NCBI RefSeq assembly: GCF_003334815.1
Contig: NZ_QOWO01000053.1
Direction: 5' to 3' (one strand)
Length of the DNA stretch: 19,069 nucleotides
Source: Escherichia coli
Lineage (GTDB): Bacteria; Pseudomonadota; Gammaproteobacteria; Enterobacterales; Enterobacteriaceae
Position numbers: made by a program. Positions 15,001 through 18,000 of this stretch are shown here, piece after piece. Position 1 is the first letter of the stretch, and every line of letters begins with the position of its first letter.

Positions 15001-18000
15001 CATTCTGAGGAGATACTGATATTGTGCTTTTGTCAGCCATATGCTGGAAGCCGCATTCAGCTCTTCCCTGGCTCCCGGATTTAGCACAGGGTCCGGGTAA
15101 ATCTTCATTAATCCATCAACAATATCTTTATTGACGGGTTTTATTTCACCGCCAAACTTCACGAAATCAATGAAGGCGCTATGGCGACGTAATGCCGATA
15201 CTGGTTGAATGTCAAAATTAGCCAGAATAAAAAAGTACCCTGGAAAAATAGCGAATATTCTTTCACGGTAACAGCGCCTGGAGTCTGCCCGTCTTATCTT
15301 TCTTGTTATTAATGGAGTCCATGGTACGACGTTTTGCTCATTCAGCCATGAGAATAAAGATTCTCTGTTTTTGCCGGCTGTATTATATTGCGCAAGATAC
15401 CAGTTCCGGTTATTCAGGTGTTCTATATTCACGAAGTTCAACGCTCCGCGCAAAACCGATCCATGATGGACGATTTTGCGATGTCAGGCGAATATGCTAA
15501 ATCATATGTCTGAAGCAGTGTCCAGCCCATATCTGGATAAACTGCAGTTCTGACAGGCATATAACCAGCAGACTCTAGTACGTTCTGTATCGGTGATTTG
15601 GCGAACTCACAGATAAAGAACGGCTAAGCACTAATATCAGCAATACAGTGGCACAGTATTGTGATACGCGAAATAAAACATCAGCACGTCAGTTCAGAGT
15701 AAGATCGCCATATATCGGGCATGAGCCAGATACAAATAACTGGGACACCGTCTGAAGTGATTTGCTTTATTAAAGTAACTTGTGCTTGGTGTTTATGTTT
15801 ATCAATTTGGGATCGCCTGTAAAGTGCAAAATGCAATTTCCATGAAAGTGTCCCCTTTAATGGGGACACCTGTTCACATTTTTTCGTTTTCTTTAGCTGT
15901 ATTGCTAATCATGAAAACGAAAGTTCGCATCAGCACAGCAGAGCGAAGTGCATCATATCCTTCCAGATTTAAATTCTTCAGGCTTCGCTTCAGGTAGGTT
16001 CGTACCGTTTCGGGAGAAAGCCGACAGTTCTGAGCAATGGCGTCGTAAGGAACACCCATTGCGTAAAAAACGCAGACTTTAAGCTGGTTTGTTGATAGCT
16101 CGGGAAACATGCCTTCCAACAGAGTGATGGCCGGGAGTTTCTGTATCAGTTGAGGTGACATAGCAAAGGTCTCCGATGACAACTAAAAACGCTATCACCG
16201 AGTTCCTACGCTCATTGGTGATAGCCCAGACGGGGGTAGGAATACCGGCGTCATCGGAAACCGGCCAGGCTAATGCCTGCCCCGCCTGAGCTACCATAGA
16301 TGACGACAAGAAATACAAGTTCCTGTCTTTATGGTATGGCAAAAAACGACGCCAAATGAAGAAATTAACTTCTGCGCCGACGATGACTACGCGGGTTCCT
16401 ACGCCCGATCACAGTTTTGCCTGTGACCAGTAAAGGGTACTTAGTATAACGCACCGAGTCAACTAACAGCTTAAAAAACATACAAAAAAGCGTTAAAACT
16501 TAACGCTCCGCGCCGAAGCGATCCAGGCATGATGCTTCTGCTTTGTGGCGTTCGAACATGCTGGTCCATATGCACGAAACGGTGTCTGACCCTCGTCCAG
16601 ACAATCCGCAGTTCTGACGAACATATGAACAAATATGCTCTTGTAGAGGCTGTTGTTACACAATTGGCGGGTTGTGTAACAAATGGTTTTATCATCTAAG
16701 AATTATTCTATTTACGATCGAATGATCTACAAAATGATTTTTTAAAGGTTTTTTAGATCGTTTAATCGCATTAAAACAGAATATTATTCTGTTAGGTGGA
16801 TCGGTTGTAAGATAAATGATCGTGAGTAGGACAAAAGTCGATCTTTTAATCCAAAAGAAGGATCTAAAGCAGAAAAATCTGCTTTTAAAAATAGATTTTA
16901 TTTTTTTTGACGCAGGTCAAGATTAACTTATTAGAGGTATCAGTGAGGAGGCACTGGAAGAGAAGAGATCGTTGTAATGCTTTTCAAATTAACGTAAAGC
17001 GGGTATATTTCGGCTGTTATTAGCTGTGCAGAGGGTGGCACTCTGTGGAGCAAAGCGGCGAAAGTCGGACGGCAGAATGCGCCATAAGGCATTCAGGAGA
17101 GATGGCATGTACGGGCAGTAAGTCAGAAGACTGAAGATGTTCCGGAAGCCATAAAAGGAAAACCCCCACTATCTTTCTTACGAACTTGGCGGAACGACGA
17201 AAGATAGTGGGGGCCTCACAGAATACGGGTAAAGTATAATGAAACCGTACCAGAGATTCAACCCTGTGCAGTGTATAAATACACGGCACAATCGCTCCGC
17301 CATAAGCGACAGCTTGTGGCAGGTCTGAAGAATACTCCATATAACGCAGTACACTGGAGTCAGTTAGCACCCGAAGAGCAGATCCGTTTCTGGGAAGACT
17401 ATGAAGCGGGAAGGGCGACCACTTTCCTGGTTGAACCGGAAAGGAAGCGCACGAAGCGCCGTCGCGGTGAACACTCCACCAAACCCAAATGCGAAAATCC
17501 GTCCTGGTATCGTCCTGCGCGCTATAAGGCGCTGAGCGGGCAGCTCGGGCACGCCTACAACCGTCTGGTGAAAAAGGACCCGGTGACCGGCGAGCAGAGC
17601 CTGCGCATGCACATGTCTCTGCATCCTTTTTACGTGCAGAAACGAACGTATGCCGGTCGCAAATATGCTTTCCGTCCGGAAAAACAACGCCTCCTCGATG
17701 CCATCTGGCCGGTTCTGGTCAGCTTCAGTGATGCGGGCACACATACCGTAGGCATGAGTGTTTCCCGTCTGGCCCGAGAAATCAGCCCGAAAGACAGCAA
17801 GGGGAAGGTTATTCCGGAACTGGAAGTGACGGTCTCCCGCCTTTCCCGTTTGCTGGCCGAACAGGTACGTTTTGGTGTGCTGGGTGTTTCAGAGGAAACC
17901 CTGTGGGACCGTGAAACCCGCCAGCGTCTGCCACGTTACGTCTGGATAACACCGGCAGGCTGGCAGATGCTGGGCGTCGACATGGTAAAACTTCACGAAC

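Follow-up and report, generated by a model that had tools for sequence, protein, structure and literature searches.

To which incompatibility group does a plasmid belong if its antisense RNA says one thing and its initiator gene another, and are all the parts of its replication control in place? This question is raised by a 19,069-nucleotide (nt) stretch of the Escherichia coli contig NZ_QOWO01000053.1 (assembly GCF_003334815.1), hereafter the window, which carries the replication initiator gene repZ together with its leader. A sequence-only reading of the window had recognized, between positions 17155 and 17328, a complete control module of an I-complex replicon, consisting of an antisense RNA (Inc RNA), a leader peptide (repY) and a pseudoknot. 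We are close to certain that this module is the replication control of an IncI1 (I-alpha) plasmid and that it works as it does in ColIb-P9. It is real and complete, but ordinary: a textbook case with a common sequence, whose biology is already known.

Identity of the control module

Searched against Rfam at gathering thresholds, the whole window yields two matches only, the PK-repZ model (RF01087) and RF01695, the latter at a separate locus described further below. The PK-repZ match spans positions 17155–17303 on the plus strand and covers the full model (1–150), scoring 194.5 bits where the gathering score is 44 (E = 3.5e-45). Its start (17155) is also that of the region singled out by the sequence-only reading, and the end of that region (17328) is the stop codon of repY. 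Positions 17100–17400 are 100% identical to ColIb-P9 (NC_002122), and the Inc promoter, Inc RNA, stem-loop I, repY, pseudoknot acceptor, masking hairpin and GUG start codon are base for base the same as in the IncI1 plasmids ColIb-P9 and R64. Within 16902–17458, a T at 17065 (C elsewhere) is the sole difference from ColIb-P9, R64 and pESBL. The Rfam E-value and the identity with ColIb-P9 together rule out a chance origin of the module. Every part anticipated by the earlier reading is found at its place, and its remark that this is known biology is borne out, as the control region is identical to those of the two plasmids in which the mechanism was worked out. The weight of the evidence lies in the ensemble of the parts and their identity with a characterized system, not in single motifs.

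The sequence is also widespread. PLSDB holds 1131 records that are at least 99% identical to positions 17100–17400, nearly all of them from Escherichia, Salmonella and Shigella and mostly conjugative. To place the module among its relatives, we aligned the 216-nt control region of ten sequences, namely the window, ColIb-P9, R64, R621a (I-gamma), pRK1, pCERC6, pCT (K1), pSTEC1587, pO26_20.1 and a K2/Z plasmid; pSTEC1587 and pO26_20.1 are plasmids typed IncFIB + IncI-gamma/K1. The window, ColIb-P9 and R64 are identical throughout this region, and every other replicon differs inside stem-loop I and the Inc RNA. The comparison of the Inc stem-loop across I-complex groups, which the earlier reading had proposed as its check, accordingly places the window in IncI1 (I-alpha), apart from I-gamma, B/O-like, K1 and K2/Z replicons.

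Could the module have decayed or fallen silent, as a leftover of a cointegrate for example, and not be the working replicon of its molecule? Nothing specific speaks for this; the 19-kb window shows one replicon's worth of sequence, and a second replicon could lie elsewhere. Against it, repY and the 343-codon repZ are open, all parts are intact, and 95% identity with ColIb-P9 is retained in the sequence 3' of repZ. Furthermore, the same 1248 nt (17100–18347) are at least 99% identical in 687 PLSDB plasmids, mostly conjugative and of 80–120 kb, and the rep region lies beside a normal IncI1 backbone (pil-traCBA) in the window. We therefore regard a remnant as extremely improbable and take the window to be part of an IncI1-type conjugative plasmid, with its replication control intact.

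The Inc RNA and its promoter

The Inc RNA is encoded on the minus strand, opposite the repZ leader. Its promoter (17261–17233) consists of a -35 element TTGAAT (17261–17256), a 17-nt spacer and a -10 element TATACT (17238–17233), is identical in ColIb-P9 and R64, and sits within the first codons of repY, with the -10 element adjoining the repY ATG. A promoter scan found two promoter-like sites per 600 nt compared with 0.7 ± 1.0 in shuffled sequences; taken alone, the promoter match is weak.

From the position of this promoter, we infer a transcript that starts at about 17226, some 7 nt past the -10 element, and ends within a run of U residues (17162–17153), which delimits an Inc RNA gene of about 17226–17155 and a predicted length of 65–74 nt, depending on the end point in the U-run. 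Read from about 17226, the minus strand has the sequence GUAUUCUGUGAGG, followed by a long hairpin, which is the complement of stem-loop I, and then by UUUUCCUUUU. The RNA folds with -33.9 kcal/mol (z = -5.76), and none of 200 shuffled sequences folds as well. The Inc terminator escaped a simple scan for terminators, because its hairpin is long, interrupted and beyond the loop limit of the scanner; folding shows both hairpin and U-run. The antisense promoter and the terminated RNA of about 70 nt that had been read from the sequence are thus both recovered, in agreement with the description of Inc as a regulatory RNA of about 70 nt ending with a stretch of four U residues (PMC7491321). Over its 72-nt region, the window is identical to ColIb-P9, R64 and pESBL (72/72) and 88.9% identical to R621a and pRK1. 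FopA, a plasmid-encoded protein with a FinO domain, binds Inc and accelerates its pairing with repZ RNA (PMC7491321).

Stem-loop I, the pseudoknot and the masking hairpin

The target of the Inc RNA in the repZ leader is stem-loop I (17156–17216, plus strand), as delineated by the Rfam PK-repZ consensus structure and by minimum free energy (MFE) folding. It comprises a main stem (17163–17177 with 17199–17213), a basal stem (17156–17158 with 17214–17216) and a small upper stem (17181–17182 with 17195–17196). Across the relatives, five pairs of the main stem and two of the upper stem, seven in total, have changed at both partners; a second count of these compensatory changes gives eight. Mapped on the alignment, the whole structure has 94.2% of its cells paired, compared with 35–46% when the partner columns are slid against each other, and none of 500 shuffles reaches the observed covariation. 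The repZ leader as a whole, which includes stem-loop I and the hairpin masking the CGCC tract and the GUG, folds strongly (z = -6.86).

At the tip of stem-loop I lies the hexanucleotide UUGGCG (17186–17191), as the sequence-only reading had it; it is part of a TTGGCGG block that is invariant in the ten aligned sequences, and the motif appears in the title of the paper by Asano et al. (1998) that PMC4705826 cites. It contains the GGCG (17188–17191) that acts as the partner of either the Inc RNA or a distal CGCC (PMC4705826). The distal partner is the heptanucleotide UCCGCCA (17296–17302, core CGCC at 17298–17301), which is the exact complement of UGGCGGA (17187–17193) and is invariant in all relatives. 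Its last base precedes the G of the repZ GTG (17316) by 14 nt, with 13 nt in between. The earlier reading of a 7-nt acceptor 14 nt before the GTG therefore stands as to sequence and position; as to its extent, the pseudoknot core defined experimentally is the 4-base-pair (bp) GGCG/CGCC (PMC4705826), and the 7-nt match is the pairing that the sequence allows beyond it.

The acceptor is itself part of a predicted masking hairpin (17292–17328, plus strand; MFE -31 kcal/mol, z = -4.99), in which positions 17297–17307 pair with the repZ GUG region at 17312–17323 and the repY stop codon lies at the base. In this predicted fold, CCGCCAUAAGC pairs with GCUUGUGGC.GG, which encloses the CGCC tract as well as the GUG, in agreement with the published stable structure that hides the GUG and a weak Shine–Dalgarno (SD) sequence (PMC4705826). 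Between stem-loop I and the masking hairpin, MFE folds predict a further, intermediate hairpin inside repY (17265–17290, plus strand, GUGCAGUGUAUAAAUACACGGCAC), for which 88.6% of the cells are paired in the relatives, a partial support.

The 9-nt sequence CGCCATAAG, which includes the acceptor core, occurs twice in the window (0.14 copies expected), at 17080–17088 and 17298–17306, and both copies are in the repZ leader. The downstream copy is the known pseudoknot acceptor. The upstream copy, CGCCAUAAG at 17080–17088, falls in a predicted hairpin (17075–17094), and its block is invariant in nine I-complex replicons. It could be an additional partner of the GGCG loop, for instance a decoy that modulates the formation of the pseudoknot or the binding of Inc, but we see only a slim chance of this. 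The idea is weakened by pESBL, which has an A at G17081 and hence CACC in place of CGCC, because its replicon is otherwise identical and functional.

The leader peptide and the initiator gene

The leader peptide gene repY (17239–17328, plus strand; MKPYQRFNPVQCINTRHNRSAISDSLWQV) has 29 codons, from an ATG at 17239 to a UGA at 17326–17328, as the earlier reading had stated. Its stop codon ends 13 nt beyond the initial G of the repZ GUG, and the two reading frames thus overlap by 13 nt. The length of 29 codons, the start and this overlap are common to all ten I-complex replicons, and the peptide sequence varies in two of them. As length and overlap are kept though the peptide changes, repY fits a role in which the act and place of translation matter, not the peptide. 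In a transposon sequencing (TnSeq) study on pESBL, both repY and repZ were essential (PMC4288162).

The repZ (repA) gene begins at the GTG at 17316 and encodes an initiator protein of 343 amino acids (17316–18347, plus strand). The same start is annotated in RefSeq for ColIb-P9, R64 and pUMNK88_91, which fixes the start that the sequence-only reading had considered likely. RepZ matches the NCBIfam family RepA_IncFII_LM (NF040977) with 316.5 bits, the cut-off being 70. In contrast to the control region, the repZ body is 6.9% different in nucleotides from ColIb-P9 and R64; the divergence begins at about 17450 and leaves 94.8% identity at the amino-acid level.

Upstream of the region discussed so far, we infer a repZ messenger RNA (mRNA) promoter at 16981–17009 (plus strand), with a -35 element TTTTCA (16981–16986), a 17-nt spacer and a -10 element TATATT (17004–17009), which matches in 9 of 12 positions in the promoter scan. 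The blocks that hold this candidate, GCTTTTCAAA and GGGTATATT, are invariant islands amid otherwise divergent upstream sequence in nine I-complex replicons.

How the module is expected to work

Presence, position, identity and predicted folds of the parts are direct properties of the window; the mechanism itself comes from the literature on the identical sequence. In ColIb-P9, mutation of either GGCG or CGCC abolishes repZ translation, and compensatory changes restore it (PMC4705826). Translation of the rep gene begins at a GUG that is masked, together with a weak SD sequence, by a stable structure. Translation of the leader peptide (RLP) and its termination expose the CGCC tract just 5' of the SD sequence, whereupon the GGCG/CGCC pseudoknot forms, with an induction of up to about 3000-fold; Inc kissing competes with the pseudoknot, and the stable complex formed subsequently blocks the leader SD sequence (PMC4705826). 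The same summary of the mechanism is given in PMC8053102 and PMC10286972. Both the pseudoknot requirement and the repression by Inc were established in ColIb-P9 and would carry over to the window by virtue of the identical sequence.

Projected on the window, repZ mRNA would start upstream of the module, probably near 17016, with the weak SD sequence and the GUG start codon locked in a hairpin together with the CGCC tract. Ribosomes would translate the 29 codons of repY, and termination at the UGA, 13 nt past the GUG, would open the masking hairpin. The freed CGCC (17298–17301) could then pair with the GGCG (17188–17191) about 110 nt upstream, and the resulting pseudoknot would hold the repZ start open, allowing a ribosome to reinitiate at the GUG. 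The Inc RNA, about 70 nt long and transcribed constitutively from the opposite strand (promoter 17261–17233), would kiss the same loop and thereby directly block pseudoknot formation, before its duplex extends over the repY ribosome-binding site. More Inc RNA would thus mean less RepZ synthesis and a lower copy number, and the same RNA acting in trans would account for incompatibility.

We found no sequence evidence that contradicts this reading; some points nevertheless weigh against it. The complement of the loop heptanucleotide occurs six times in the window compared with 2.3 expected, and the acceptor is not a rare motif on its own. Covariation was found neither for the pseudoknot partners among the ten aligned replicons nor for the masking hairpin among the relatives compared, because both pseudoknot partners and 11 of the 14 hairpin pairs are invariant. 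For the present molecule, transcript ends, promoter use and regulation are predictions from sequence. Lastly, the behaviour of RepZ and of the origin would follow from the family and not from an identical protein, because the repZ reading frame differs by 6.9% from that of ColIb-P9. As for the first two points, what gives the acceptor weight is where it lies, that it does not vary and that it is identical to the characterized ColIb-P9 site, and invariance neither supports nor contradicts the pseudoknot or the masking hairpin.

Comparison with related control systems

The IncB/O, IncK and IncZ repBA replicons (pMU720 type; RF01089 PK-repBA) follow the same logic, with an RNAI, a 29-codon leader, a TTGGCGG loop, a TCCGCCA acceptor and a GUG (PMC10286972, PMC10724649). 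The PK-repBA model scores 41 bits on the window, below its gathering score.

A more distant relative is the CopA/tap/repA system of the IncFII plasmid R1, which shares an antisense RNA directed against the leader, a coupled leader peptide and a related Rep family, and differs in that the antisense RNA inhibits Tap translation and no pseudoknot requirement is described (PMC8053102). One may ask whether the window is controlled in this way, that is, by an antisense RNA that blocks leader translation, with repA coupled to the leader and no activating pseudoknot. Antisense RNA, leader peptide and overlapping rep gene are indeed arranged as in R1, RepZ belongs to the RepA_IncFII_LM family, and the CopA model (RF00042) has a weak, full-length match on the minus strand (38.2 bits, E = 2.6e-5). 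This match, however, stays below the gathering score of 60, as against the 194.5 bits of PK-repZ, and the GGCG loop, the CGCC acceptor and the hairpin-masked GUG are identical to those of ColIb-P9, in which repZ translation requires the pseudoknot (PMC4705826). Control of the R1 type can hence be given virtually no credence, and the pseudoknot-dependent control of ColIb-P9 is retained.

Incompatibility type and mosaic structure of the replicon

The replicon is a mosaic, of a kind that is the most frequent form in PLSDB (the 687 records mentioned above). Its control region is that of the IncI1 plasmids ColIb-P9 and R64, whereas its repZ body is I-gamma/K1-like: the nucleotide identity of the repZ open reading frame (ORF) is 100% with the ETEC4067 and pUMNK88_91 plasmids, 99.3% with pRK1, 97.7% with R621a and 97.5% with pCT, but 93.1% with ColIb-P9 and R64. 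Plasmids with rep regions that are 99–100% identical to that of the window are labelled IncI-gamma/K1 in PLSDB by MOB-suite. We thus considered whether the replicon belongs to another incompatibility group of the I-complex, IncI-gamma or IncK1, rather than to IncI1, for which both this label and the affinity of the repZ ORF would speak.

The antisense RNA points the other way. R621a and pRK1 share the architecture of the window, including an identical repY, acceptor, masking hairpin and GUG, and differ from it in stem-loop I and the Inc RNA by seven substitutions and one gap over 72 nt, which are in part compensated in the stem and in part located in the interior loop and beside the top loop. 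The Inc RNA of the window is hence of the R64/ColIb-P9 and not of the R621a type. The 143-nt IncI1 typing amplicon, which lies between the IncI1 replicon-typing primer sites, shows the same picture on the RNAI side: it is 99.3% identical to R64, 94.9% to R621a and 72–79% to the B/O/K/Z-type replicons, in which stem-loop I and the region upstream have diverged. The T at 17065 lies where the forward primer binds in the classical polymerase chain reaction (PCR) for IncI1 replicon typing, and causes one mismatch in 19 positions.

The antisense RNA determines incompatibility in the I-complex (PMC10286972, PMC10724649), and a single change in its top loop or interior loop can be enough to affect incompatibility (PMC10724649). 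The MOB-suite classes, by contrast, follow the rep-gene scheme of PMC6361801, which itself cites earlier work reporting that R621a is compatible with IncI1 plasmids. The rep gene of the window lies outside the IncI1/B/O clade of this scheme, which is a separate classification and does not concern the incompatibility determinant. On the sequence of the Inc RNA, an assignment to IncI-gamma is ruled out, and we consider it very unlikely overall that the replicon belongs to a group other than IncI1.

The claim that the module fixes the replicon family consequently stands for the I-complex and, by the Inc RNA, for IncI1, but not for rep-gene typing, which gives another label because the repZ ORF belongs to the I-gamma/K1 rep clade. 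Since the antisense RNA decides incompatibility, the replicon is functionally IncI1, and incompatibility with R64/ColIb-P9-type plasmids is predicted. In practice, the Inc RNA says IncI1 while rep-gene tools (MOB-suite/PLSDB) say IncI-gamma/K1, so that an 'IncI-gamma/K1' label reported for a plasmid of this kind should not be taken to mean compatibility with IncI1. Rep-based labelling is a known limitation of typing (PMC10286972). The junction of an I-alpha control region with an I-gamma-like repZ suggests that control module and initiator recombine freely, an exchange that has already been recognized in outline.

A C4-like RNA locus upstream of traA

The second Rfam match in the window is a C4 antisense RNA (RF01695) at 16301–16214 on the minus strand (77.5 bits against a gathering score of 45), just upstream of traA (ATG at 16161). 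The locus as a whole extends from 16403 to 16168 and includes, besides the RNA, complementary boxes upstream (16403–16381) and downstream (16210–16202 and 16181–16168). Among phages, its nearest relative is the immunity region (cI RNA) of the satellite phage P4, with 82% identity over 116 nt and an RF01695 score of 74.9 bits; among the B/O/K/Z-type loci compared, a match to RF01695 is absent.

The loop of the second hairpin of this RNA can form a 14-bp pairing with UGUCAUCGGAGACC (16181–16168), which contains the SD sequence of traA (-24.6 kcal/mol, equalled by none of 1000 shuffles), and its single-stranded UUCCUAC can pair with GUAGGAA both downstream (16209–16203) and upstream (16402–16396). 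Between P4 and the plasmid, there are three changes in the loop and two in the single-stranded segment, all of them compensated in the downstream boxes: loop and box are CCGAUGAC and GUCAUCGG in the plasmid versus CCUGUGAA and UUCACAGG in P4, and single-stranded segment and box are UUCCUAC and GUAGGAA versus UUCUCAC and GUGAGAA. The C4-like RNA probably works as a repressor of traA of the P4-CI/P1-c4 type.

In pESBL, the copy of this RNA is found at 35424–35511 and thus, by coordinates, inside the 270-bp Hft 'superspreader' region (35394–35663). Transposon insertions in Hft increase transfer more than 10-fold, and traA::lacZ expression rises about 50-fold; the authors named small RNAs as one possible explanation but did not settle on a mechanism (PMC4288162, PMC5801416). 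We found no paper linking the Hft region to c4/CI-type RNAs in a limited literature search, which is not proof that the link is unpublished. R64-drd11 has specific substitutions at 16290 (in the outer stem of the RNA, lowering the Rfam score to 72.4 bits), at 16200 (in a predicted duplex beside the downstream box) and at 15987 (in traA), which would correspond to the published X1, X2 and X3.

Related records annotate a coding sequence for an 'ash family protein' (Hp1 in pESBL) across the C4-like RNA, corresponding to 16079–16342 on the minus strand of the window. The name 'ash' goes back to an ORF, labelled 'put. ash gene', that was drawn across the cI RNA region of P4, an NCBIfam search with the 16079–16342 ORF gave no match, and overexpression of Hp1 was without effect (PMC5801416). 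This ORF is probably an RNA gene mis-annotated as a protein. The C4-like RNA in Hft is more interesting than the replication module and deserves an evaluation of its own.

The ends of the window

At its start (1 to about 1050), the window is matched by the best plasmids in three to five pieces, or only from 878 or 1049 onwards, which fits a rearranged shufflon at the pilV 3' end. At the other end, the segment downstream of repZ (18348–19069) is the presumed site of CIS and ori. Its features include a GC-rich hairpin, GCCCCTCCGGGGC (18382–18394), a tandem 14-nt repeat, GAAGCTGCAAACCT / GAAACAGCAAACCT (18548–18575), and further short repeats. An ungapped comparison with ColIb-P9 loses register after about 18900, and gapped blastn aligns the two sequences to 19064 at 95% identity.

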